Shown in pieces: positions 6,891 through 34,288 of a DNA stretch of 64,000 nucleotides. The DNA is from an uncultured Acidobacteriota bacterium (lineage in GTDB: Bacteria; Acidobacteriota; Vicinamibacteria; Vicinamibacterales; CAVVIG01). The position numbers and the translations under genes are program-made. The notes beneath the pieces are model-generated. The model was not told where the DNA came from. It saw nothing but the letters and a program-made list of their open reading frames with translations, and did not search any database. Positions within the stretch are counted from its first letter, which is position 1. Every line of letters begins with the position of its first letter. The stretch covers positions 1,155,238 through 1,219,237 of the forward strand of contig CAVXGU010000003.1 of NCBI GenBank assembly GCA_963761615.1, in the 5' to 3' direction.

Positions 6891-7571
6891 ATGCGCATGA
6901 AGTCACTGTTTGCAGTCACGGTTGCGATGCTGACCCTCGGCGGGGTGGCCTCGGCCCAGACGACACCGGCCCAGACGACGGCGCCGGCGGGCACCCTCGG
7001 GTACGCCGAGTTCGTCGGGCAGTCAGCATGGGGAAACGTGACGAACCAGTCGTACGGCGCCGAGGGGGGCGTGCAGGTGTCGGCGAACCTGGAGGCGTTC
7101 GTCGAGATGGGTTGGACCCGCGACGTCGCCAGCGACGCCACGCGGCACGCCGCAGAGCTCATCGCCGGGTTCCTGGGCGAGACCCAGGGCGAGACGACGT
7201 TCACCGCCAGGGAATCGGCGGCTTTCTTCGCTGGCGGCGTGCGGTACCCGCTGCAGCTCGAGGGCTCCCCGCTCGGTTCGCTCAAGCCGTACGTGGAGGG
7301 TGGCGCCGGCTGGGCCCACCTCACCAAGAAATCCACCTTCTCCGTCGCGGGCACCGACGTGACCAGCACCCTCGGCGATCTCGGTGTCCAGATCGGATCC
7401 GACCTCGCCGGCACCCGCAACGCGGGCTTGATGGTCCTCGGCGCGGGCGTGGTCTGGCCGGTGTGGCGCCAGGTGATCGTCGACTTCAACTACCGCTACA
7501 GCAAGATCTTCACGAGCCCCGACCGCGTCAATCTCAACCGCGCGGGCCTCGGCATCGGCATCACGTTCTAG
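6891..7571 (+). CDS. outer-membrane beta-barrel protein (porin/OmpW-like size)
   Basis: Signal peptide MRMKSLFAVTVAMLTLGGVASAQ; alternating beta pattern; C-terminal ..GLGIGITF. Only the last 226 codons of ORF 5229..7571 are credible. Confidence 0.7.
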   Translation: MRMKSLFAVTVAMLTLGGVASAQTTPAQTTAPAGTLGYAEFVGQSAWGNVTNQSYGAEGGVQVSANLEAFVEMGWTRDVASDATRHAAELIAGFLGETQGETTFTARESAAFFAGGVRYPLQLEGSPLGSLKPYVEGGAGWAHLTKKSTFSVAGTDVTSTLGDLGVQIGSDLAGTRNAGLMVLGAGVVWPVWRQVIVDFNYRYSKIFTSPDRVNLNRAGLGIGITF

Positions 7572-7646
7572 CCGGTCCCCTTCAAGGGCGATCCCCGGAA
7601 CCCTGGATTTGGTGGACGCGGGCGACCGCGGACCGCCATTTGGCTG

Positions 7647-7683
7647 TTGACGTGGTCAAACACTTGTTTTATACATATGTTTA
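7647..7683 (+). promoter_or_regulatory. candidate sigma70-type promoter with overlapping palindrome upstream of the HlyD operon
   Basis: TTGACG (7647-7652), 17-nt spacer, TATACA (7670-7675) in a locally AT-rich patch; imperfect 14-bp palindrome TATACATATGTTTA 7670-7683; ATG at 7689. Confidence 0.35.
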
Positions 7684-7688
7684 GCGCC

Positions 7689-8732
7689 ATGAAGAAGAGA
7701 ATCCTGCTTCTGCTCGTTGTCGTCGCGGCCGTTGCCGGCGGCGCCGTCTACTACCTGCATCGCACGCCGGACGACCTCGTGCTCACCGGCGTCGTCACGA
7801 CCAACGACGTGATCGTGAGCCCCCAGATCGGCGGCCAGATCGACAAGCTCCTGGTGAAGGAGGGCGACACGGTGGAGAAGGACCAGCTGCTGGCCGTCAT
7901 CGCCCCTGACGAGCTGAAGGCCGACAGCGCCTACTACGCCCAGAGCGCCCAGGGGCTCGTGGCGCAGGTGAAGGAGTCCGAGGCGGCGCTCCGGTACCAG
8001 GAGCGCCAGACCACCGACCAGATCAACCAGGCGGAGTCGACGCTCGCCTCCGTGAAGGCGCAGCAGAAGGCCGCGGCGGCCGATCTCGAGAACGCCAAGC
8101 TCAACTACGACCGGACGAAGAACCTGGCGGCGCAGGGCGTGGTTCCGGCGCAGCAGCTCGATCAGGACCGCACGGCCTACGACGCGGCACAGGCGCGCCT
8201 CGACGCGCTGCAGCGTCAGGTCGATGCGCAGACCGCCGCCGTGGCCCTCGCGCGGTCCAACGCCGAGCAGGTCTCGGTCAAACGCAGCCAGCTCGCGGCC
8301 AATCAGTACCTCCAGGCGGCCGCCGCAGCCCAGGAGAACAAGGCCGGCGTGCGGCTGGGGTACACCGAAGTCCACGCTCCGATCGGCGGCATCGTCGATG
8401 TGCGCGCGGTCCGGGCCGGCGAGGTCGTGACGGCCGGGGAGCCGATCGTCACCCTGATCAATCCCGACGATCTCTGGGTGCGGGCCGACGTCGAGGAGAC
8501 CTACATCGACCGCGTGCGCCTCGGCGATCGCATGACGGTCCGCCTGCCGTCCGGGGACGAGCGCGAGGGCACGGTGATCTTCCGCGGCGTCGACGCCTCG
8601 TTCGCCACCCAGCGCGACGTGAGCCGCACCAAGCGCGACATCAAGACTTTCGAGATCCGGCTCCGGTGCGACAACTCGGATCGCCGGCTCGCGGTGGGCA
8701 TGACGGCGTACGTCCTGCTGCCGATCAAGTAG
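7689..8732 (+). CDS. HlyD-family periplasmic adaptor / membrane fusion protein
   Basis: N-terminal TM anchor; lipoyl-like hairpin (VSPQIGGQIDKLLVKEGDTVEKDQLLAVI); long coiled coil; beta-barrel C-terminus. Confidence 0.85.
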   Translation: MKKRILLLLVVVAAVAGGAVYYLHRTPDDLVLTGVVTTNDVIVSPQIGGQIDKLLVKEGDTVEKDQLLAVIAPDELKADSAYYAQSAQGLVAQVKESEAALRYQERQTTDQINQAESTLASVKAQQKAAAADLENAKLNYDRTKNLAAQGVVPAQQLDQDRTAYDAAQARLDALQRQVDAQTAAVALARSNAEQVSVKRSQLAANQYLQAAAAAQENKAGVRLGYTEVHAPIGGIVDVRAVRAGEVVTAGEPIVTLINPDDLWVRADVEETYIDRVRLGDRMTVRLPSGDEREGTVIFRGVDASFATQRDVSRTKRDIKTFEIRLRCDNSDRRLAVGMTAYVLLPIK

Positions 8733-18779: not shown

Positions 18780-19481
18780 TTACTGCGTCCGCTCTTTGGG
18801 CGAGTACCGGTTCAGCAGCTCGATGAGCTTTGCTGCGGACTTGGGTGCGGCTCGACCGGTCGTGACGATGTCGCGGTTCTCCAGTTTCTTCCCATACAGG
18901 GTGGCGTTGTCGTCCAGGTCCTGACGCAGCGTGGCGCCTTCCAGAGCCACGCCCGCGAACAAGCCCTGCGAGCGCGACCACGACAGGATGTCGGCGTGCA
19001 TTTGCGCGTCGGTCTGGGCCGTCGCCGTGCGTCCCACGGGGCCTGCGGCGACCGAGCCTTCAGCGCCCAGCGTGAACTGGCTCGACAACAGCTTGTCCGC
19101 GCCCCGATCGCTCATGACCAGCATGATCAAGTCGGTGGAAGAACCGCCGATCTGGAACCCGACGCTTCCACCCTCGATGCGGACGGTCCCGGGAGCAGAC
19201 CAGCCCGGCCGGGTCTTGCGGCGGCAGGAGATGTAGCCTTTTCCGTACTTCCCGCCCACGATGAACGCAGCGGTCTTGAGGTCCGGAACAATCACGATGC
19301 AATGGGCGGCCTCGAGGAGATCCTGGGGGATGCCCTGATCGGGCGCCGCCATGATCTGCGAGAACACCGCCGCCGCGTCGTCCAGCCGCTGAGCCGCTTC
19401 GTTGTCTGCTGCCTGCACCGGCGACAACGCGATCGTCGTTGCCACGGTCGTCGCCAGAGTCGTCGCGATAATCCATCTCAC
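18780..19481 (-). CDS. secreted Ysc84/DUF500 (SH3YL1-like lipid-binding) domain protein
   Basis: CIVIVPDLKTAAFIVGGKYGKGYISCR...GGSVGFQIGG...LGAEGSVAAGPVGR pattern; GTG 19481 gives a signal peptide (RWIIATTLATTVATTIALSPVQA). Confidence 0.8.
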   Translation of the reverse strand: MRWIIATTLATTVATTIALSPVQAADNEAAQRLDDAAAVFSQIMAAPDQGIPQDLLEAAHCIVIVPDLKTAAFIVGGKYGKGYISCRRKTRPGWSAPGTVRIEGGSVGFQIGGSSTDLIMLVMSDRGADKLLSSQFTLGAEGSVAAGPVGRTATAQTDAQMHADILSWSRSQGLFAGVALEGATLRQDLDDNATLYGKKLENRDIVTTGRAAPKSAAKLIELLNRYSPKERTQ

Positions 19482-19742
19482 GTCACACCGTCCTTCTATT
19501 GGGAGTGTCCAGTCCTGCAACGTAGCGTACGAGGCGCGCACGCCGATGTTCCGTTTGAGACGCCGTGAGGCGGAGGGCTTTCTGTGGAAGCTCGCCCGGT
19601 CGGACCGGCGGCCGCCAATTCCTGCGCGTAGTCAGAAACAGCCGGGACGGCATGTAATGGATCTCCTCGGTTGGACGAGGCCGCAGGATCGCGGACCATT
19701 CCGCGATCCTGCGGCACGAGACCGCTCGGCGGCGATTCGGTG

Positions 19743-20138
19743 CTAGCGACCGCGGTCGTTGCGGTCGTGCGATGGCGCATTCCGGTTTGCGTCGCGCTGC
19801 CTGCTCCGGTCCCAGCGGTGGTCGTGGGTCAGTGTGCCTCGACTGCCTTCCCACTCGCCGTTGTAGTACTGACCGCCGACGTAGTACGGAGCCACCCAGT
19901 ACGCACCCTCATAGGGCGGCAGCGTCCAGTAGCCGTTGTGCCATCTGTAGCGCGAGCCCTGGGGATACCAGTAGCCCTCAACCCACAGGTAGTCGAGTCC
20001 GGGCTGGCGCGGCACGCGGTACGCTCGTGGAGCCGGCGGCTCGCCGATGTGAATGCCGAAGGAAATCTGCGCGTGGGCCGCAGATGCGGTGGTGAGGAGC
20101 AAGGTCGCGACGGCAAGTGTGCAAAGGAGTCTTTTCAT
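19743..20138 (-). CDS. secreted Tyr/Trp-rich repeat protein (YXWGXW-like)
   Basis: Signal peptide MKRLLCTLAVATLLLTTASAAHAQ; WVEGYWYPQGSRYRWHNGYWTLPP.. aromatic repeats; basic tail. Confidence 0.7.
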   Translation of the reverse strand: MKRLLCTLAVATLLLTTASAAHAQISFGIHIGEPPAPRAYRVPRQPGLDYLWVEGYWYPQGSRYRWHNGYWTLPPYEGAYWVAPYYVGGQYYNGEWEGSRGTLTHDHRWDRSRQRDANRNAPSHDRNDRGR

Positions 20139-20940: not shown

Positions 20941-21393
20941 GTGGACGTGGGTGGGCGGCGGCGTCGTGTTCGCGCGACGATTCGCGTGGCTCGTTCCCTT
21001 GTCGCGCTGGCTTGCTGCCTCGCCCTGACCTCGGTCGCAGGCGCACAGCCTCTGGCGCCGGCGCCGAATTCGTCAGGCTTCGAGCTTCCGCTGACCATCT
21101 ACTTCTCCTCGGCTGCCCTCGACGTCGCGACGACGGCGATGCAGTGGAACGGCACGCGCGAGTCGAATCCCCTCGTGGCGTGGGCGGCGCCCATGGGGCC
21201 CGGCCCGATGCTCACGATCGGCGAAGGCATGGACGTGCTGCTCGTCTGGACGCTGCACCGGTGGCTCCACGAGCGGGACCCGGCGCTGCTCCGGGGGATC
21301 CTCTATGCCGCGTCGGCTGTTCGCCTGACCATGGGCATCTCCAACTGGCGTCTGAACCAGGACACCGCCCGGCTCATGCGGTCGCCGCGGTGA
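20941..21393 (+). CDS. DUF5658-like membrane protein
   Basis: AALDVATTAMQWNGTRESNPLV matches the D..TT......E.NP motif. Start ambiguous: in-frame GTG at 20941 or 20947. An SD-preceded ATG at 20930 is in another frame. Confidence 0.55.
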   Translation: MDVGGRRRRVRATIRVARSLVALACCLALTSVAGAQPLAPAPNSSGFELPLTIYFSSAALDVATTAMQWNGTRESNPLVAWAAPMGPGPMLTIGEGMDVLLVWTLHRWLHERDPALLRGILYAASAVRLTMGISNWRLNQDTARLMRSPR

Positions 21394-21624
21394 ACCGCCA
21401 CCAGCGCCGAGCACGCCGCGCGGCGCCGCGCGGCGGCCGGGAAGACGCTCCTGCGCGATGGGACGGTCATCCTGGCGTCGTGTGCCGAACGGTACAGACG
21501 GGCATCCGTCGACCGAGCCACGATGCGGTTCCGACTCAGCCGTCCGCGGCAGGGCGTCCACACGCGGTCGGCGCCTGCTCGCGGAATCACCTCGATGACC
21601 TGTTGCGCGAAGAGGAGACGTCAG

Positions 21625-22860
21625 ATGCGACTTTCGAAACGTGTCGGCACAGCGATAGCGATGGCCGCGTGCGCGGCCCTGCTCGGAACCCTTCCGGCGG
21701 CCGCGCAGGCGCGCAGACCAGCCCCGGCGCCGGCCACGTCCCGATCTGCCGATGGATATCTGACGGCCACTCGACTCGGTGGCTCGACGTCGCTGTACCG
21801 GCCGGACCTGACTGACGCCGCCAGCGTGAAGCGGATGGCCGGCGTGCGTGGCATGGAGGCCGACATCCGGAAGGTGTTGGCCGACAGCGGTCTGTCCGAA
21901 ACGGCCGACCAGGTGGTGGCGATGCTGTCCAACGCCCCGGCCGCCGTGAGAGGCGGGGCGTGCCGCGACGCCAGACCGGAAGACGGCACGCTCGTGGACT
22001 GCGACTTCGCCCCCGGTGGAACGCTCGAGTGGATGGCCTACCGGCCGAACATCGGCCGGCGCGATCGGACGCCGGATCGCCTGGAGAAGGTTCGATGGGG
22101 CGGCCGGGCGCCGTTCAAGGCCTTTCTGTTCCGCGTGACGACCGACGGCCGAATCTACACGTTCGTCCTTCCGAAGGTGTGCAGCAACCTCTCGTTGATG
22201 TCGGTGCAGGACGTCCCCAGGGTGGCCGTCGCGGAGCCGCCGCCGCCCCCGCCGCCGCCCCCGCCGCCACCCCCGCCGCCGCCCCCGCCACCACCGCCCC
22301 CGCCGCCACCCCCGCCGCCACCCCCGCCCCCGCCCCCGCCCCCGCCTCCTGCGGCGGCGAAAGCGAGCCCGTTCTTCATCGACGCCCTGATCGGCAAGGA
22401 TCGCCGCGTCAGGCCGATTGAGGGCCGCACGACGGGCAACGGCAACCCGGTGACGGCGAACGCCGGCGCGTCCGACTTCGTGCAGTGCACACCGCTCGTC
22501 GGCGTCAAGGTGGGCGTGGCGAAGCGGTTCGCGAGCAACTGGGAGCTGGCCGGCACCGGCGGCGTCGCGTTCAGCCTGGTGCGCGCCGACCAGAAGGTGC
22601 ACCAGAACGAGGTGCTGGTCGACATCGAAGCGAACAAGTACCTGGCCGACAACGCGTTCATCGGGACGGGCCTCTCGTTGTGGGACGTCACCCACAGCGA
22701 CGCGTTCACGCCGGCGCTGCTGCTGCACTTCGGCGTGCCGCTCGGCCACCATCCGAGTCACCAGACGTACTTCCTGGCCGAAGGCCGTCTGTTCTTCGAT
22801 CACGCTGACGACCTCCGGAACAACTACCAGTTCTGGGGCGGCGTGCGGGTTCACTTCTAG
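21625..22860 (+). CDS. secreted protein: Cys-containing N-domain, 38-Pro linker, C-terminal OM beta-barrel-like domain
   Basis: GAGGAG before the ATG; signal peptide ..LLGTLPAAAQA; 38 consecutive Pro; C-terminal about 165 aa with alternating pattern ending WGGVRVHF (aromatic terminal residue typical of OMPs). Confidence 0.75.
   Translation: MRLSKRVGTAIAMAACAALLGTLPAAAQARRPAPAPATSRSADGYLTATRLGGSTSLYRPDLTDAASVKRMAGVRGMEADIRKVLADSGLSETADQVVAMLSNAPAAVRGGACRDARPEDGTLVDCDFAPGGTLEWMAYRPNIGRRDRTPDRLEKVRWGGRAPFKAFLFRVTTDGRIYTFVLPKVCSNLSLMSVQDVPRVAVAEPPPPPPPPPPPPPPPPPPPPPPPPPPPPPPPPPPPPPPAAAKASPFFIDALIGKDRRVRPIEGRTTGNGNPVTANAGASDFVQCTPLVGVKVGVAKRFASNWELAGTGGVAFSLVRADQKVHQNEVLVDIEANKYLADNAFIGTGLSLWDVTHSDAFTPALLLHFGVPLGHHPSHQTYFLAEGRLFFDHADDLRNNYQFWGGVRVHF
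22237..22350 (+). repeat. uninterrupted run of 38 proline codons (C-rich on plus strand, G-rich on minus strand)
   Basis: Counted codon by codon: 8+20+10 CCN codons. 22321-22343 is C5-G-C5-G-C5-G-C5, i.e. four G5 runs on the minus strand. Confidence 0.95.
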
Positions 22861-22902
22861 TCGTTCATGCGGACACGTGTTTCTCAGGAAGAGACGGATC
22901 AA

Positions 22903-23634
22903 ATGATGAAGCGAGCTTTGTGGATTGCGCTGGCGCTCTCGGTCGTCAGCATCGCCTCGGCGTCGACCGCGCGAGCGGACGAGTGGAATCGGAAGACGCA
23001 GATCACCTTCAGTCGGCCCGTGGAGATCTCCGGCCATGTGCTGCCGGCTGGCACCTACCGGTTCCAGATGGCGGACTCGAGCGACCGCCATATCGTGCAG
23101 ATCCTCAGCGCCGACGGATCGAAGATCATGGCGACCGTGATGACGATTCCCGACTACCGGCTCACGCGGACGGACGAGACGGTGGTCTCGTTCCGTGAAG
23201 TGCCGGCCGGCGCCCCGGAGGCCATCCGGGCGTGGTTCTATCCCGGCAGCAGCGCCGGCGAAGAGTTCATCTACCGGAAGAATCGGGCCATCGAGCTGGC
23301 CAAGGCGTCGAACGTGGTGGTGCCCGCGTTCGCCGCGGACGTCGACGACGATGACGCGTTGAAGACGGCGCCGATCGTGGCGATCACGCCTGACGCGCAG
23401 GAACGTCCGGTCGCCGACGCGATCGAGACGAATCCCGGAACGCTGAGTGCCAGCGTCGGATCGGTCTCCAGCCAGCCGTCGTCGGCCGACGCCGGAGGCC
23501 GCCAGGTCGCGCGGAACGAGCTGCCGAAGACGGCCAGCCCCCTGCCGCTGATCCTGTCCGTGGGCCTCGGGCTCCTGGCCGCCGGCCTGGGTCTCATGGC
23601 GTTCGGCAAGCGCGCGACGGCGCCCATCGCGTAA
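22903..23634 (+). CDS. secreted protein with C-terminal sortase-type sorting signal (LPKTAS + TM + KR)
   Basis: Signal peptide MMKRALWIALALSVVSIASASTARA; about 125-aa globular domain; acidic/Ser linker. The C-terminus NELPKTAS-PLPLILSVGLGLLAAGLGLMAF-GKR (23521-23634) is a cell-wall sorting signal architecture. Confidence 0.75.
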   Translation: MMKRALWIALALSVVSIASASTARADEWNRKTQITFSRPVEISGHVLPAGTYRFQMADSSDRHIVQILSADGSKIMATVMTIPDYRLTRTDETVVSFREVPAGAPEAIRAWFYPGSSAGEEFIYRKNRAIELAKASNVVVPAFAADVDDDDALKTAPIVAITPDAQERPVADAIETNPGTLSASVGSVSSQPSSADAGGRQVARNELPKTASPLPLILSVGLGLLAAGLGLMAFGKRATAPIA

Positions 23635-23646
23635 GAGCGGTTCCAC

Positions 23647-24570
23647 GTGAAGCTGTGGCTCAGCGCGCTCCTCCTGCTCCAGGCCGTCATCAGCGTCCAG
23701 ACCGAGCTGGTGACGGTGCCCGTCACGGTGACCGACAGCCAGGGCCGCCACGTGAGGGGGCTCGGTCAGGAGAGCTTTCGGGTGGTGGAAGACGGCCGGT
23801 TGCGGCCCATCGCTGCGTTTGTCGGCGGGGATGCGGACGTGACCCTGGGCCTCGTGGTCGATCGGAGCCAGAGCATGCGCTCGAAGACGCCGGCTCTCGT
23901 GACCGCGGTGTCGGCGCTCTTGCGCTCGACCCGCCCTGGCGATGAGCTGTTCGCGGTGGACGTCAACGATCGCGTGTCGCTCGTCGGGCGGCCGGACGGT
24001 CAGCCATTCACGCAGGACATCGAGGGGTTGCAGGCGGCCGTGGTCGATGTCCGCGCGGAAGGCCGGACGGCGCTCTACGACGCCGTCGCCGAGGGGCTGC
24101 AGCATCTGCAACTCGGACACGCGGAGACCCGCGCGCTCGTCGTGATCAGCGACGGCGGCGACAACGCGAGCGAGCGGACGTACGCGGAGATTCTGGCCCT
24201 GGTACGGCAGTCCAACGTGGTGATCGACGCCATCGGCCTGTTCGGCACGTCCACGGCCGAGGAGGACGAGAATCCCGGGCTCCTCAAGCGGTTGTGCCGC
24301 GATACGGGCGGCGTGGCCTACTTTCCGCGGACCGACGATGACATTGCGGCCGCCGCGACCGAGATCGCCGGCGATCTCCGGGCGCAGTATCTGCTCGGCT
24401 TCGTGCCAGCCGACCGTGCCGACGGGCCCGCGTTTCGAAAGATCGCGGTCACGGTGAGCGCGCCCGGCCGCGGCCGGCTTCACGTTCGTGCGCGGACGGG
24501 GTACCTGCTGCCGGCCAAACAGGCTGACGACGACCGGGCGCGCGAACACACGGGACCGGGGACACCATGA
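23647..24570 (+). CDS. VWA (von Willebrand factor A) domain protein with intact MIDAS
   Basis: Hydrophobic N-terminus; DxSxS (VVDRSQSM); later T and D (GRTALYDA, SDGGDN). Resembles the VWFA-related family expanded in Acidobacteria (from memory). GTG start; stop overlaps the sortase ATG. Confidence 0.85.
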   Translation: MKLWLSALLLLQAVISVQTELVTVPVTVTDSQGRHVRGLGQESFRVVEDGRLRPIAAFVGGDADVTLGLVVDRSQSMRSKTPALVTAVSALLRSTRPGDELFAVDVNDRVSLVGRPDGQPFTQDIEGLQAAVVDVRAEGRTALYDAVAEGLQHLQLGHAETRALVVISDGGDNASERTYAEILALVRQSNVVIDAIGLFGTSTAEEDENPGLLKRLCRDTGGVAYFPRTDDDIAAAATEIAGDLRAQYLLGFVPADRADGPAFRKIAVTVSAPGRGRLHVRARTGYLLPAKQADDDRAREHTGPGTP

Positions 24571-25142
24571 CCTGGACGTCCGCCCGCGGCTGGGTGGCCG
24601 GCGGGCTCCTGGCGGCCGGCCTCCTGGCGTGCGGGTACGTCGCGTACGTGGTCGTCGACGCGAGGACCTACCAGCGGGTCGAGCGGCGGCGATTCGAGCA
24701 GGCGCCCGCGCCCCCGGCCGCCGACGCGGCCTCCGCGCCGATGGCCGGAGACGCGATTGGCGAGATTCGGATTGAGCGGCTCGGCCTGCTCGCCGTGGTC
24801 GCCCAGGGGGATTCGATTCCGATTCTCCGACGAGCCGTCGGTCACCTCTCCGAGACGGCGCTGCCGGGCCAGTTGGGGAACGTCGTGCTGGCCGGCCACC
24901 GCGACACGTTCTTCCGGCCGCTGAAGCAGGTCAGGGCCGGCGACGCGATCACGCTGACCACGCGCACCGGGGTGTTCGAGTACGTCGTGGAGTCGACGGC
25001 CGTCGTGCCCCCGAGCGACGTGCAGGTCCTGGAGGCTCGCGGCGGACGGACGCTGACGCTGATCACGTGCTTTCCGTTCTCCTTCCTCGGCGCGGCGCCC
25101 GATCGCTTCATCGTGCGAGCTCGCGAGGCGGGAGGCATCTGA
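24567..25142 (+). CDS. membrane-anchored sortase-family transpeptidase
   Basis: N-terminal TM (WVAGGLLAAGLLACGYVAYVVV); catalytic His (VLAGHRDT), Cys (TLTLITCFPF, the TLxTC motif) and Arg (DRFIVRA); ATGA overlap with the VWA gene. Confidence 0.85.
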   Translation: MTWTSARGWVAGGLLAAGLLACGYVAYVVVDARTYQRVERRRFEQAPAPPAADAASAPMAGDAIGEIRIERLGLLAVVAQGDSIPILRRAVGHLSETALPGQLGNVVLAGHRDTFFRPLKQVRAGDAITLTTRTGVFEYVVESTAVVPPSDVQVLEARGGRTLTLITCFPFSFLGAAPDRFIVRAREAGGI

Positions 25143-25160: not shown

Positions 25161-27464
25161 CTATCGAACGGTCTGGGGAGCGGCGTTCGGCACGGCCAGG
25201 GGCACGTAGCCGTCCGCGGCACCCCGAAGCAGCCACGTGGCGGCGGCGGACGACATCGGGCGGGCATCGAACGAGCTGGCGACGGCATGGCCGAGCGGGT
25301 CGGTCGCCGGGAGCGGAGCGGGCGGGAGCAGCGACGCCGCAATGCGCGCGTCCATCGCCGGCGGAAAGGCCGGCACGGCGCCGACCAGCTGGTCCCGGTA
25401 CACGGCGCGCATCAGTTCCTCGAAGATCGGCAGCGCCACCCTGGCCCCGGTTTCACTCGATCCCAGCGACCGGTCGTCGTCGAAGCCGATCCGAACGGCC
25501 ACGGTAATCCCGTCCGGGCCGTACGTGGAACCGACGAAGAGGGCGTCCCTGAAGTCATTGGTGGTGCCCGTCTTTCCCATCACCGCGATGGGGAATCCGC
25601 GACCGGCCAGGGCATGGGCCGTGCCCGTCGGCAGCAGGACCACGCCGCGCAGGCCTTCCTGGATGAGCGAGAGCGCGAGCGGATCGATGGCGGCCGGCTG
25701 CGGACTGCGTCGCGCCGACGGCACGATGCCGCCCGAACTGCGAACGATCCGCTGAATCACGTACGGGTCGGCGTCGATGCCGGACGCCATCGCGCGGTAC
25801 GCGTTGGCGAGCTCCAGGAGCGTCAGCTCCGACGCGCCGAGAGCCGTCGTGGGATAGCGCGCGAGGGGCGTCCGGATGCCGAGCGTGGTCGACGTCCGGG
25901 CGATGCGATCGATTCCGACCTGCTCTCCGATCCACATGGCCACCGCGTTTCTCGATTCGGCGAGCGCCTGGCGGATCGGAATGAGGCCTTCGAAGCGTCC
26001 GTCGTAGTTCGAGATCCACTTGAGCGGCTGTGTCTCCCCATTCGGCACGGCGATGGGCTCGTCCGGGACCGGCGTGTCGAGCGTGAACCCGCCGGTCTGG
26101 AAGGCCGCCAGGTAGACGATCGGCTTCATCGCGGATCCCGGCTGCCGCAGCGACCGCGTGGCCCGGTTGTAGTCGCTGTACGCCGCCGAGCGGCCGTGGA
26201 ACACCTGCCGCCCGCCCGTCTCGGCCAGGATCCCCGCGTCGCGGTTCCGCAGCACTACGACCGAGCCCTGGAGGAGGCCCCGGGCCTTCGGATGCCGGTG
26301 CTCGTACTGGGCGAGGCCGTGCTCCAGTGCGTCGCTGGCGAGATGCTGCACCCGCGTGCTCGCCGTCGCGTACACGTCGATCCGTCCCGCGAGGAGGTCT
26401 TCGAGACCCAGATCGGCGTGCGTGCCGAGCTCCGCGACGACGTGACCCACGACCGCGGACGCCTGGAGCTCCGGGCGGGCGGCGTGCGGTGCGACCCGCA
26501 GGGCGCGCCCCCGGGCCTGCGCGGCCGCCTGCGGCGACAGGAACCCGTCTGCCTGCATGAGCGCCAGGGTCTGGTTCCGCCGTCGCACGACCCGGTCTCC
26601 GTTCGCCGCGCCCGGCGCGTACTCGCGAGGGGATTTGGGGATGCCGGCGAGCACCGCCGCCTTGTCGGCGTCGGCGACGGTGAAGGTGGCCAGCGGCCGG
26701 CCGAAGTAGTACTCCGCCGCCCGTGCAAACCCGTACTGGCCATTGCCCATGTACACGAGGCTCGCGTACCGGGCCAGGATTTCTTCCTTCGCGCGGCGCT
26801 TCGACCCGAACTGCTCCCGCATCTGCTGTTCGAGCCACACGGAGAGCCGGATCTCCTCACGCTTGCGGGCGAGCATGTTGACGGCGCGGGCGCCCATCGC
26901 CCACGACAGGAGACTCGCGGCCGGGCCGGCGTGGTGGAGGCGGTTGCTGTTCTCGGCGGCCGTCACGTCCCGGAGAAACGTGCCGCGCACGAGCTGCTGG
27001 GTAATCGTCGACCCGCCCTGCGGAAACGGCGCGGCGCCGGCGGGGCCGTTGCCGCGGCCGCCCCTCGCGAGCCGGCCAACCAGCGTGCCGACCCTGGCCT
27101 TCCCGAGGACGCGAGGCAGGCTGAAGTAGTCGACCCCGTTGTGGGAGAAGAAGCGCTTGTCCTCGGCGGCCAGGATGGCGTCCTGCACGACGGGGGGCAG
27201 ATCCTCGTAGCGCGTGATCGCACGCGGCTCGCGGGCCAGCTCGACGATCGGCCGTCCGTCGGCGTCGTACACGTGACCGCCCGTCGGCAGCTCGAACCGG
27301 ACGAAGGCCCCCAGGTCGGGCAGGTCGCGCCGGTCGAAGTACACGTGGTCCACCTCGGCCGCCACCAGTGCGGCGGCGAGCAGGGCGACCGCGGTCCCGA
27401 CGGCCCCGAGCCCGAGCAGGAGCGTGACGCGTCTGTTCGTGCGCCACGTAAGATGGAGGGTCAC
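25161..27464 (-). CDS. mrcA: class A penicillin-binding protein (PBP1A; glycosyltransferase GT51 + transpeptidase)
   Basis: GT51 motifs AAEDKRFFSHNGVD, GGSTITQQL, RKREE; transpeptidase SAMKP (SxxK), SRN, KTGTT. Confidence 0.9.
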   Translation of the reverse strand: MTLHLTWRTNRRVTLLLGLGAVGTAVALLAAALVAAEVDHVYFDRRDLPDLGAFVRFELPTGGHVYDADGRPIVELAREPRAITRYEDLPPVVQDAILAAEDKRFFSHNGVDYFSLPRVLGKARVGTLVGRLARGGRGNGPAGAAPFPQGGSTITQQLVRGTFLRDVTAAENSNRLHHAGPAASLLSWAMGARAVNMLARKREEIRLSVWLEQQMREQFGSKRRAKEEILARYASLVYMGNGQYGFARAAEYYFGRPLATFTVADADKAAVLAGIPKSPREYAPGAANGDRVVRRRNQTLALMQADGFLSPQAAAQARGRALRVAPHAARPELQASAVVGHVVAELGTHADLGLEDLLAGRIDVYATASTRVQHLASDALEHGLAQYEHRHPKARGLLQGSVVVLRNRDAGILAETGGRQVFHGRSAAYSDYNRATRSLRQPGSAMKPIVYLAAFQTGGFTLDTPVPDEPIAVPNGETQPLKWISNYDGRFEGLIPIRQALAESRNAVAMWIGEQVGIDRIARTSTTLGIRTPLARYPTTALGASELTLLELANAYRAMASGIDADPYVIQRIVRSSGGIVPSARRSPQPAAIDPLALSLIQEGLRGVVLLPTGTAHALAGRGFPIAVMGKTGTTNDFRDALFVGSTYGPDGITVAVRIGFDDDRSLGSSETGARVALPIFEELMRAVYRDQLVGAVPAFPPAMDARIAASLLPPAPLPATDPLGHAVASSFDARPMSSAAATWLLRGAADGYVPLAVPNAAPQTVR

Positions 27465-33718: not shown

Positions 33719-34288
33719 CTACGCGCAGCAAGACTGCTTCTTGCCGTCGTGGAGTTCTGCGCCCGGCAGCATCGCCTTGCTCCCGGCCACCTCGTTGCGC
33801 GTGCCGTGGGCGATCACCACGAACTTACCGGCCTTGATCAACGTCTCGTATTTCAGCACGCTGTCTTTGGGAATGCCGATCCCGTACAGACCGGCGCCCA
33901 AGGCGCTCATTCCCCCGACCACCGTCGCCCCCTCCAGCGCCCCGACGACCCAGGCCACGAGCGGCCCTGCCGCGAAGAGCGGTCCGATCCCCGGAATGAC
34001 GAACAGCGCCGACCCGAAGAGCATCCCCCAGAGTCCGCCCCAGAACGCGCCCGTCTTGCCCCACGCCATCATGCGATCACCGGTGTTGTAGTACCCGACC
34101 ACGCCTTCCTCGGTGGAGTAGTCTCTGCCCACGATGGAGAGCTTGTGCAGGTCGAAGCCAGATTTCGCGAGCGCGCGGACCGCCTCTTCGGCGGCGCGGT
34201 GGCTCTCGTAGACGGCGACGGCGCTCCCATGTGCCGATGTCTCTGAGCGGGCCGGTGTTTCTGGTGCGAGCGTCGCGTGTCCTGCCAT
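33719..34288 (-). CDS. stress-associated membrane protein (YflT/GSP17M-like N-domain + Gly-zipper TM region)
   Basis: VAVYESHRAAEEAVRALAKSGFD..LSIVG, then GAFWGGLWGMLFG..GIGPLFAAGPL..GALEGA; paralogous architecture to 47244..47927. Confidence 0.7.
   Translation of the reverse strand: MAGHATLAPETPARSETSAHGSAVAVYESHRAAEEAVRALAKSGFDLHKLSIVGRDYSTEEGVVGYYNTGDRMMAWGKTGAFWGGLWGMLFGSALFVIPGIGPLFAAGPLVAWVVGALEGATVVGGMSALGAGLYGIGIPKDSVLKYETLIKAGKFVVIAHGTRNEVAGSKAMLPGAELHDGKKQSCCA

Follow-up and report, generated by a model that had tools for sequence, protein, structure and literature searches.

A 38-proline tract as the probable core of a length-constrained spacer in a putative outer-membrane-anchored periplasmic protein of Vicinamibacteria

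Proteins that span the bacterial envelope must fit the distances between outer membrane, cell wall, and inner membrane, a distance-matching principle that so far comes from a few model cases, namely Lpp, OmpA, TonB, the Lpo proteins, and OmpM. In Escherichia coli OmpA and Pseudomonas OprF, an 8-stranded anchor is connected by a Pro/Ala-rich hinge to a periplasmic globular domain, the hinge of OmpA comprising roughly 15–20 mixed residues. TonB, which extends outward from an inner-membrane anchor, bridges envelope layers with a proline-rich rod of polyproline-II type made of Glu-Pro/Lys-Pro repeats, and single alpha-helices of the ER/K type serve as rigid spacers in myosins and other eukaryotic proteins. 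The OmpM/SlpA tethers of Negativicutes and Deinococcus combine an N-terminal SLH domain, a coiled-coil stalk, and a C-terminal barrel, and the stalk of OmpM sets the distance between outer membrane and peptidoglycan (PMC10628300). Finally, the Lpo-type activators of penicillin-binding proteins (PBPs) consist of an outer-membrane anchor, a long nonglobular linker, and a small globular domain: in LpoP, residues 20–146 are disordered and precede the globular domain, which in Lpo proteins must pass the cell wall to reach an inner-membrane synthase (PMC7267771).

Here, we analyzed a 64-kb stretch of DNA from an uncultured Acidobacteriota bacterium (hereafter the window), in which a plus-strand gene at positions 21625..22860, delineated from the open reading frame list and its translation, is predicted to encode a secreted outer-membrane protein of 411 aa. 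The start codon is likely the ATG at 21625 (MRLSKR...) rather than the in-frame upstream ATG at 21523. The protein is composed, in this order, of a putative signal peptide (MRLSKRVGTAIAMAACAALLGTLPAAAQA, 21625..21711, +), an N-terminal domain, a spacer of 58 residues, and an 8-stranded barrel at the C-terminus. Our analyses make it probable that this protein is periplasmic and anchored in the outer membrane, with a spacer under length constraint whose pure-proline core is the 38-proline tract found in its middle. As the first-pass annotation of this DNA had proposed, the tract does join an N-terminal to a C-terminal domain: the AlphaFold2 model of the whole protein (mean pLDDT 87.5), examined along with Foldseek, contains two confident domains with a nonglobular linker between them, the pLDDT being about 54 or below over residues 1–40. 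An apparent signal peptidase I site follows AQA in the translation, and a hydrophobic stretch ending in A-x-A-Q is retained in the family consensus. The 260 homologues that we found are all unannotated, with a top identity of 63% among the matches listed, and the named members of the family almost all belong to the Vicinamibacteria (Acidobacteriota). Searched as a whole, the window protein matched no Pfam family at E ≤ 1, and nothing in NCBIfam beyond a compositional match to BimA on the proline run.

The C-terminal domain (residues 250–411; 22372..22857, +) had been suspected to form a beta-barrel, and it is indeed modeled as one by AlphaFold2, with eight strands in the DSSP assignment (residues 250–264, 284–301, 306–317, 329–339, 345–353, 362–372, 380–390, and 401–410), loops of 8–19 residues alternating with turns of 4–7 residues, and a pLDDT mostly above 90. 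Foldseek matched it in the PDB to the transmembrane domain of OmpA, NspA, OprF, OmpX, Ail, and OmpW (E 7e-4 to 3e-2, probability 0.93–1.0), the entries for OmpA (9fzc_A, E 6.8e-4; 1bxw, 1.0e-3), NspA (1p4t, 1.2e-3), OprF (4rlc, 3.6e-3), and OmpX (2m06, 2.7e-2) reaching a probability of 0.99–1.0 and a target TM-score of 0.46–0.60. The protein ends in ...YQFWGGVRVHF, of which the terminal F, the aromatic residue of the beta-signal, is nearly invariant in the family. The Pfam model OMP_b-brl (PF13505) is not matched by the window protein at E ≤ 1, and distant proteins that share the N-terminal domain do match it (P0188, 2.4e-23; P0214, 1.9e-11). Strand count, fold likeness, and the signal peptide together with the C-terminal aromatic residue are those of the 8-stranded OmpA/OmpX/NspA-like class.

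The N-terminal alpha/beta domain (residues 36–200 of the AlphaFold2 model; 21730..22224, +) is also confidently modeled when isolated (pLDDT 93.7, pTM 0.88) and harbors the conserved motifs WMAYRP and YTFxVPKxCxNLSL as well as three invariant cysteines (Cys113, Cys126, and Cys186). It has no match in Pfam or NCBIfam, its fold has none in the PDB according to Foldseek (best E 0.55), and a sequence-profile search against the PDB returned no significant match. A profile search with this domain gathered 532 clusters, of which the 150 listed have it close to the N-terminus; the clusters of its distant relatives bear hardly any taxonomic names. We place it in the periplasm because even-stranded barrels in general have that topology. 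The invariant Cys186 stands at the end of this domain and another invariant cysteine, Cys288, in the barrel, close to where strand 2 is predicted to end on the outer side; a disulfide between the two, if present, would contradict an extended spacer.

The tract itself could be confirmed as 38 uninterrupted CCN codons at 22237..22350 (+), encoding residues 205–242 in the frame of the open reading frame 21523–22860 (+) and bordered by GAG (Glu) and GCG (Ala). CCG accounts for 21 of these codons, CCC for 10, CCA for 5, and CCT for 2. Such a run would be expected by chance with a probability of about 1e-13, assuming a proline fraction in the spacer of 0.42, the family average, and a six-frame scan of the window for runs of at least 6 prolines returned this tract alone. 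Tandem Repeats Finder and the codon list resolve most of it (22237..22346, +) into a tandem array of 8.9 copies of the 12-nt unit CCGCCGCCGCCC with 87% matches, the 3′ end of which consists of 6-nt CCGCCC units, and a second periodicity of 51 nt (2.1 copies, 92% matches) is superimposed, which together point to duplication or slippage. Long open reading frames antisense to the tract, namely a polyglycine frame and a minus-strand frame of 1,158 aa, were dismissed as artefacts of high GC content since it is the plus-strand frame that homologues keep. A scan for promoters and terminators yielded no signal above chance.

From a family-wide perspective, the relevant unit is the whole spacer (residues 192–249, 58 aa; 22198..22371, +), which we delimited with the anchors CxNLSL and FFxDxxxGKDRR and which is modeled by AlphaFold2 without regular secondary structure, at a pLDDT of about 70–79. 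The expectation that orthologues would carry a proline-rich linker was borne out, as all the inspected homologues of about 400 aa have a Pro/Ala/Val-rich spacer at this site. Among 98 nonredundant spacers of this proline type, the median length is 60 aa (59–60 aa for the family), with an interquartile range of 58–62 aa within which the window spacer falls. In a sister subfamily, the site is occupied by a Glu/Arg/Lys-rich (ER/K-like) repeat of the EEARKAEEARK type, unrelated in sequence to the proline spacers (n = 18, median 94.5 aa, interquartile range 93–97), and in a third subfamily by a spacer of about 200–230 aa with weak matches to Ig-like domains. Worm-like-chain estimates, which rest on an assumed rise per residue and assumed persistence lengths, give an end-to-end distance of 11–14 nm for the proline type and of about 12 nm for the ER/K type, and all three types come to roughly 11–14 nm; provided that they are helical, the ER/K-like spacers would thus have roughly the same physical length as the proline spacers. 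This convergence, along with the narrow length distribution within the proline, ER/K-like, and Ig-like subfamilies, strengthens the idea of a molecular ruler that had been put forward for the tract. The accompanying estimate of about 12 nm for the 38 prolines holds as a contour length, but its description as periplasm-spanning was an overstatement, since, by the dimensions of E. coli, 11–14 nm leads from the outer membrane about as far as the cell-wall layer and not across the full periplasm.

Pure proline runs of 20–45 residues recur in independent assemblies from different projects, the long runs of relatives counting 45, 44, 42, 37 (five loci), 36, 35, 34, 32, and 28 prolines, although run lengths derived from short-read assemblies are uncertain, with nine related contigs starting partway through the tract. 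In the protein database, the longest pure run among homologues is of 11 prolines, versus up to 45 in loci retrieved at the DNA level, and the protein collection evidently under-represents genes with long runs. Variation in multiples of 3 nt, anticipated from the repetitive nature of the tract, was observed between close relatives (34 vs. 37, 37 vs. 42, and 36 vs. 37 prolines), the DNA downstream of the 34/37 pair being 100% identical. While run length thus varies among close relatives, the total spacer length stays in a narrow range, a longer run being offset by the loss of other spacer segments (58 aa in the window, 56–57 aa at locus L001). Given that the two end domains are kept while three chemically unrelated spacers are each narrow in length, the spacer appears to be under selection for its physical length rather than for its sequence.

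One may instead consider that the spacer is a flexible low-complexity linker devoid of any length function and that the run is a repeat that has expanded neutrally because the genome is rich in GC. The great variability of the spacer sequence among relatives, the clear signatures of slippage, and the differences in run length between close relatives would all fit such a scenario; however, drift should widen the total length, which is at odds with the interquartile ranges just given for the 98 proline-type and the 18 ER/K-like spacers, and the growth of a run should not be matched by losses elsewhere in the spacer that preserve the total. We therefore regard neutral expansion as rather unlikely, even if it is the strongest competitor of a length-constrained spacer.

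Ribosomes stall on consecutive prolines and require EF-P to translate them, so that the polyproline could also act as a translational throttle, tying synthesis of the protein to EF-P activity and coupling its level to translation capacity. The codon composition of the family tracts does bear the mark of selection at the translation level: CCC represents only 1.3% of proline codons in the 24 other long tracts versus 17.3% elsewhere in the same genes (Fisher p = 5e-29), and CCA rises to 32% in these tracts versus 11% elsewhere. This scarcity of CCC and excess of CCA agree with the published selection against frameshift-prone CCC/U-C and the enrichment of CCA in proline pairs (PMC8129111). Nevertheless, dependence on EF-P already sets in with three or four prolines, which makes 38–45 of them superfluous, and the ER/K-like or Ig-like spacers of the sister subfamilies are free of this dependence, yet length-constrained; a throttle is accordingly an improbable main explanation of the tract. 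Throttling is compatible with the spacer explanation. A tblastn search of the 64-kb window with an E. coli EF-P query did not find efp. With regard to codon choice, the window tract, with its ten CCC codons, is an outlier among the 25 tracts (p = 2e-9), and this richness is consistent with the expansion of the 12-nt unit.

The CCC codons also underlie the feature that had initially drawn attention to the tract at the DNA level. As reported, positions 22321..22343 read C5GC5GC5GC5 on the coding strand (CCCCCGCCCCCGCCCCCGCCCCC), a C-rich sequence of i-motif type, and G5-C-G5-C-G5-C-G5 on the minus (template) strand, a canonical G-quadruplex (G4) motif with four G5 runs and 1-nt loops. The prediction of a G4 was upheld, with a best 25-nt G4Hunter-style score of 3.16 in the tract against 2.0 for the next-best region of the window, and ViennaRNA, when allowed to form G-quadruplexes, folded the G5 runs into one, albeit with an implausible energy. 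On this basis, the tract could be viewed as chiefly a nucleic-acid element, in which a template G-quadruplex or coding-strand i-motif regulates transcription or replication, or makes the locus fragile. Besides the strength of the motif, such a view may invoke its rarity, since the window, at 68% GC, contains just two motifs of the canonical G4 type (four runs of at least 3 separated by loops of 1–7 nt), both of them in the tract. However, a G4 motif was present in 92% of random codings of 38 prolines drawn with the proline codon usage of the window (and the exact C5GC5GC5GC5 pattern in 4.5% of draws), so that its presence needs no special explanation. Moreover, none of the 24 other nonredundant pure proline runs of 20–45 codons contains one, most of these tracts lacking any C run longer than 2, and only 5 of the 88 complete spacers of relatives do (L005, L104, L105, L018, and L019), with motifs that extend partly outside the pure run. 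The depletion of CCC is also far beyond what the avoidance of G4s would need, a lone CCC being harmless in this respect. The proposal of a functional or regulated G4/i-motif is thus not sustained by the comparison with relatives, in which the motif is unconserved and CCC avoided; a nucleic-acid role strikes us as very improbable, and the motif looks like an unconserved and incidental side-effect of codon choice.

Just as doubtful is the possibility that the N-terminal domain is a surface passenger or adhesin borne on an extracellular polyproline stalk, the barrel acting as an autotransporter-like translocator. The succession of an N-terminal soluble domain, a linker, and a C-terminal barrel does resemble that of autotransporters, some distant relatives are called "opacity protein-like surface antigen" by JGI/IMG, and the weak NCBIfam match is to the trimeric autotransporter BimA; yet this match covers the proline run alone and is compositional (24 bits vs. 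a cut-off of 600). The window protein differs from type Va autotransporters in having 8 rather than 12 strands and no match to the Pfam Autotransporter family (PF03797), and its barrel aligns better with those of OmpA, NspA, and OmpX (target TM-score of about 0.5–0.6) than with the 12-stranded autotransporter barrel of BrkA (0.27–0.28, Foldseek-PDB). Moreover, 8-stranded barrels are not known to have a lumen wide enough for the passage of a polypeptide. Lastly, an assembly or base-calling artefact could have created the tract or altered its exact length and CCC content. This is suggested by the difficulty of assembling low-complexity (CCN)n, by the contigs that begin inside it, and by the outlying CCC content of the window, but hardly credible in view of the runs of 28–45 prolines found in many independent assemblies of different projects, the intact reading frame, the conserved flanks, and a 58-aa spacer at the family median, which makes a collapse or expansion of the repeat unlikely.

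If the tract is indeed the core of a length-constrained spacer, the protein would be exported through its Sec-type signal peptide and its C-terminal 162 residues would form an OmpA-like barrel of eight strands inserted in the outer membrane. Since both chain ends of such barrels are on the periplasmic side, the 58-residue proline-rich segment would hang into the periplasm, presumably as an extended and stiff polyproline-II rod, and, taking the distances of E. coli, would keep the N-terminal domain about 11–14 nm below the membrane, roughly at or just through the peptidoglycan. With length under selection, the spacer sequence would be free to drift, and slippage and small tandem duplications could, in this GC-rich lineage, repeatedly homogenize it into (CCG/CCA)n. 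In the window, the 12-nt unit that was amplified would have happened to hold CCC, generating the G-quadruplex-capable sequence as a by-product, which, with ten CCC-C sites at which ribosomes tend to shift to the +1 frame, may if anything be a liability.

Regarding the role of the N-terminal domain, we examined the genomic context of the family. In the window, three tightly packed genes follow on the same strand (22867..25142, +; Pfam, NCBIfam, and open reading frame list), starting 6 nt after the stop of the barrel gene: the first encodes a 255-aa protein ending with LPKTAS, a hydrophobic stretch, and KR; the second a vWA protein (Pfam VWA; NCBIfam TIGR03436 acidobact_VWFA); and the third, which overlaps the vWA gene by 4 nt, a sortase (Pfam Sortase, with a class-D-like NCBIfam match just below cut-off). 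A functional tie to this sortase operon was set aside because its genes adjoin a homologue in only 3–4 of 79 related loci, in varying orientation. Elsewhere in the window, positions 18780..19541 encode a SYLF-domain protein. A gene for a class A PBP, with transglycosylase and transpeptidase domains according to Pfam and NCBIfam, lies on the opposite strand (25161..27464, −), 2.3 kb away; at 13 of 79 genome loci, no more than 6 kb separates a homologue of this gene from a family member, and at locus L162 the two are divergent and adjacent. This neighborhood may provide only a lead on the role of the N-terminal domain, and the proximity could simply be due to a gene order that is conserved across one class of bacteria. 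Following this lead, the family could tentatively be viewed as an acidobacterial counterpart of LpoA, LpoB, and LpoP, that is, an outer-membrane-anchored probe reaching a class A PBP or another partner in the inner periplasm, an unlikely scenario in which a spacer of ruler length may let the N-terminal domain contact its partner only across the cell-wall layer. If this were true, the family would constitute a new class of cell-wall-synthesis regulator with three interchangeable rulers of equal physical length (a polyproline, a charged single helix, and tandem Ig-like domains), and thereby a natural experiment on the way cells gauge envelope geometry.

More generally, this uncharacterized family of abundant and mostly uncultured soil bacteria brings comparative evidence for length selection and offers a system in which it can be tested directly. 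To our knowledge, its proline runs, with up to 45 residues, are among the longest known in bacterial proteins, and the near-total avoidance of CCC within them makes an extreme natural case of the rule against CCC-C, useful to research on EF-P and on reading-frame maintenance. For the window, the practical point is that the G-quadruplex can be treated as incidental.

Compared with described systems, the window protein resembles OmpA and OprF in its anchor, hinge, and globular domain, but in inverted order, its soluble domain preceding the barrel; neither Pfam nor NCBIfam detected the peptidoglycan-binding OmpA_C domain in it, and the hinge of the family, of about 58 aa with up to 45 straight prolines, is far longer than that of OmpA. 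With the Lpo proteins it shares a general plan of anchor, nonglobular linker, and small globular domain, with no sequence or detected fold similarity: the Lpo anchor is a lipid when the window protein would be held by a barrel (its signal peptide ends with AQA and the family consensus has no conserved lipobox cysteine), and the Lpo linker is disordered when that of the family is length-conserved and presumably stiff. TonB offers a precedent for the proposed proline-rich rod bridging envelope layers, except that it is anchored in the other membrane, that its repeat spacer is not homopolymeric, and that its terminal domains are unrelated. The EEARKAEEARK-type repeats of the sister subfamily resemble in sequence the ER/K single helices and have no counterpart in the window protein. 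As for OmpM/SlpA, their 16-stranded barrel and trimeric coiled-coil stalk differ from the 8 strands and polyproline of the window protein, in which Pfam matches no SLH domain, and the sister subfamilies depart from them too, with a putative charged helix or Ig-like domains as stalk; nevertheless, and as a resemblance of design only, the window protein would run, as they do, from a periplasmic domain at the N-terminus through a rigid stalk to a barrel at the C-terminus.

An uninterrupted run of 38 CCN codons (21 CCG, 10 CCC, 5 CCA, and 2 CCT) lies at 22237-22350, flanked by a Glu codon and an Ala codon and read in the frame of the plus-strand ORF 21523-22860, so that the 38 consecutive prolines reported by the first-pass annotation are borne out by the codon read-out. 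The gene likely starts at the ATG at 21625, and the translation of the resulting 411-aa product opens with a signal-peptide-like sequence ending in AQA. No other run of at least six prolines is found in any frame of the 64-kb window, and the chance of such a run given the spacer composition of the family is ~1e-13. Tandem Repeats Finder resolves the tract into 8.9 copies of a 12-nt unit, CCGCCGCCGCCC, and 2.1 copies of a 51-nt unit, so that it is internally organised like a recent tandem expansion. A 1158-aa ORF running across the locus on the minus strand (21073-24549) and a polyglycine ORF opposite the tract were judged to be high-GC artefacts, since it is the plus-strand frame that is conserved in homologues.

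The window protein has no Pfam match, and its sole NCBIfam match is a compositional one on the proline run. A search with both flanking domains recovered 260 homologues, all labelled "hypothetical" (63% identity for the best among the matches listed), the named ones being Acidobacteriota/Vicinamibacterales; species-representative genomes yielded 79 loci, which with few exceptions bear the label Acidobacteriota, Vicinamibacteria, or Vicinamibacterales, with more than one paralogue in several genomes. AlphaFold2 (97-sequence alignment, mean pLDDT 87.5) predicts an alpha/beta N-domain (residues ~36-200), a spacer devoid of regular structure (pLDDT 70-79), and, from residue 250 to the C-terminus (...GGVRVHF), a barrel of eight strands in which long loops alternate with short turns. 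The barrel proposed by the first-pass annotation thus gains support from this model and from the PDB matches of the C-domain in Foldseek, namely the OmpA transmembrane domain, NspA, the OprF barrel, OmpX, Ail, and OmpW. As both chain ends of such barrels face the periplasm, the spacer and the N-domain are presumably periplasmic. The N-domain, confidently modelled alone (pLDDT 93.7, pTM 0.88), matched nothing in the PDB by Foldseek (best E 0.55) or by sequence. Four cysteines are invariant across the 97 aligned homologues: Cys113 (codon 21961-21963), Cys126 (22000-22002), and Cys186 (22180-22182) in the N-domain, and Cys288 (22486-22488) close to what is predicted to be the outer end of the second barrel strand.

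What appears to be conserved between these two domains is a length. Proline-type spacers have a median of 60 aa (IQR 58-62, n = 98 non-redundant), the window spacer measuring 58. A more distant subfamily (~30-37% identity) keeps both the N-domain and the barrel, joined instead by an 88-103-aa Glu/Ala/Arg/Lys-rich repeat of the EEARKAEEARK, EKERLEKERL, or AARDQAARDQ type (median 94.5, IQR 93-97, n = 18), which looks like a single alpha-helix spacer; members include loci L047, L050, L051, L066, L068, L069, L071, and L076-L078 and, among others, proteins P0162, P0167, P0185, P0191, and P0203. In a third subfamily (~550 aa), the anchors lie roughly 200-230 aa apart, and the stretch between them weakly matches bacterial Ig-like domains in Pfam. 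An N-domain profile search returned 532 clusters, with the domain near the N-terminus in the 150 hits listed; in inspected members it is followed by one of the three spacer types and then mostly by a barrel-type C-terminus, two inspected relatives matching Pfam OMP_b-brl. Some proteins (P0130, P0132, P0138, and P0219) have this N-domain and a spacer rich in proline but, in place of the barrel, a CarboxypepD_reg/SpaA-like beta-sandwich, and share a C-terminus, ...(D/E)ASPSR, which is possibly a sorting signal.

Assuming a rise per residue of 0.31 nm in polyproline-II and of 0.15 nm in an alpha-helix, and persistence lengths in the literature range, the computed end-to-end reach is ~11-14 nm for the proline spacer and ~12 nm for the charged one; by rough estimate, a pair of Ig-like domains together with short stretches of proline comes to the same range. 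That three unrelated chemistries display narrow lengths and similar predicted reach is the strongest evidence for a ruler or spacer function, a proposal of the first-pass annotation that these sequence comparisons support and sharpen. With E. coli distances as a yardstick, such a reach would span the gap between the outer membrane and the cell wall, and not the whole periplasm as had been suggested.

The proline content itself is widely shared, every inspected ~400-aa homologue bearing a Pro/Ala/Val-rich segment between the anchors CxNLSL and FFxDxxxGKDRR. The longest pure run among protein database homologues is 11 prolines, but DNA-level loci show far longer ones: 37 in L001, the nearest of the representative genomes (64% identity), and, on metagenome contigs, 45 (L090), 44 (L092), 42 (L093), 37 (L081, L097, L118, L132), 36 (L085, L091), 35 (L121), 34 (L006, L134, L145), 32 (L123), and 28 (L010, L080, L130), among others. 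A run like that of the window is thus genuine in kind and usual for its clade, and an assembly artefact is unlikely. Run lengths also differ between close relatives, in line with the variation that had been anticipated: 37 versus 34 in L118 and L006, whose next 480 nt are 100% identical, 42 versus 37 in L093 and L097 (93.6% identity), and 37 versus 36 in L001 and L085 (93.5%). Nine contigs (L023, L133, L135, L136, L137, L142, L145, L147, L149) start within the tract, indicating that short-read assemblies break there and that exact lengths drawn from them call for caution; for the same reason, family genes may be under-represented in protein databases.

The idea that the tract acts through a regulatory G-quadruplex is not supported. 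The 68%-GC window contains only two canonical G4-type motifs, both inside the tract, where 22321-22343 reads C5GC5GC5GC5, and the G4Hunter-style score is 3.16 in the tract and 2.0 in the runner-up region (33906-33953, about -2.0, C-rich on the plus strand). However, none of 24 further non-redundant runs with 20 or more prolines carries a G4 motif, most having no C run longer than two, and among the complete spacers of relatives only five have any such motif. This absence from pure runs follows from a depletion of CCC, which makes up 10 of 779 codons (1.3%) in these runs versus 17.3% elsewhere in the genes that contain them (Fisher p = 5e-29), CCA rising from 11% to 32%. Since even single CCC codons are depleted, which avoidance of G4 motifs would not require, a cause in translation or in homopolymer runs is favoured, and the ~ten-fold depletion of CCC relative to CCT, compared with their ratio elsewhere, argues against a purely mutational one. 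The pattern agrees with published evidence of strong selection against the +1 frameshift-prone CCC/U-C, and of CCA enrichment in proline pairs (Krafczyk et al. 2021, PMC8129111). The window tract is an outlier (CCC at 10 of 38 codons, p = 2e-9 versus other tracts), its CCC codons recurring at one position of the repeated 12-nt and 6-nt units, as expected if a single unit with CCC in it had been amplified. Because 92% of random 38-proline codings with its codon usage contain a G4 motif, the motif looks like a by-product of codon choice and is probably a cost. A +1 slip within the tract (+1 frame, 22237-22388) would lead into an Arg/Pro-rich tail with a stop at 22388, leaving an N-domain product without its barrel anchor; each of the ten CCC-C sites, which the genome tolerates, could give rise to it, and we regard it as a curiosity rather than a mechanism.

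A class A penicillin-binding protein (PBP) gene (25161-27464, minus strand) lies 2.3 kb from the window gene. Of the 79 loci, 13 have one within 6 kb of a family member, in the proline-type as well as the Ig-type subfamily, sometimes directly adjacent, divergent or on the same strand; the loci named for this neighbour are L015, L025, L026, L033-L038, L042, L044, L045, L059, and L063. A SYLF/Ysc84-domain protein, weakly BPSL1445-like, is encoded in the window at 18780-19541 (minus strand), and such proteins neighbour family members in 7 of 79 loci. In locus L160 the corresponding gene (7291-8004) runs 4 nt into the start of the homologue, overlapping its start codon, and this suggests that the two are transcribed together in that locus. 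The product of 19743-20138 (minus strand) is small, secreted, and matched by a WXXGXW repeat, and a homologue of it is likewise located near family members in L004 and L023. Six nucleotides after the window gene's stop codon begin three plus-strand genes (within 22867-25142) encoding a 255-aa secreted protein that ends in LPKTAS, a hydrophobic stretch, and KR, a TIGR03436 "acidobact_VWFA" vWA protein, and a class-D-like sortase (133.7 bits, the cut-off being 140). The bacterium that carries this sortase cluster has an outer membrane, and the cluster adjoins homologues in only 3-4 of 79 loci, in varying orientation. These PBP, SYLF, and sortase-cluster neighbourhoods may stem from gene order being conserved in a single bacterial class. 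The recurrent PBP neighbour motivates, and does not establish, a role like that of Lpo proteins, whose LpoP/LpoB architecture (PMC7267771) is the basis of the comparison.

With regard to known systems, the window protein failed the defining domain tests for the OmpA_C, SLH, autotransporter, and lipoprotein families, and its assignment thus goes no further than the structural class of 8-stranded barrels. It nevertheless recalls OmpA in its barrel, hinge, and periplasmic domain, OmpM in its N-terminal domain, stalk, and C-terminal barrel (PMC10628300), TonB in its proline-rich rod, and Lpo proteins in its long reach from the outer membrane. On this basis, it is best described as a putative outer-membrane-anchored periplasmic-spacer protein, of the barrel class by predicted fold, whose kinship to these systems would be one of design only.
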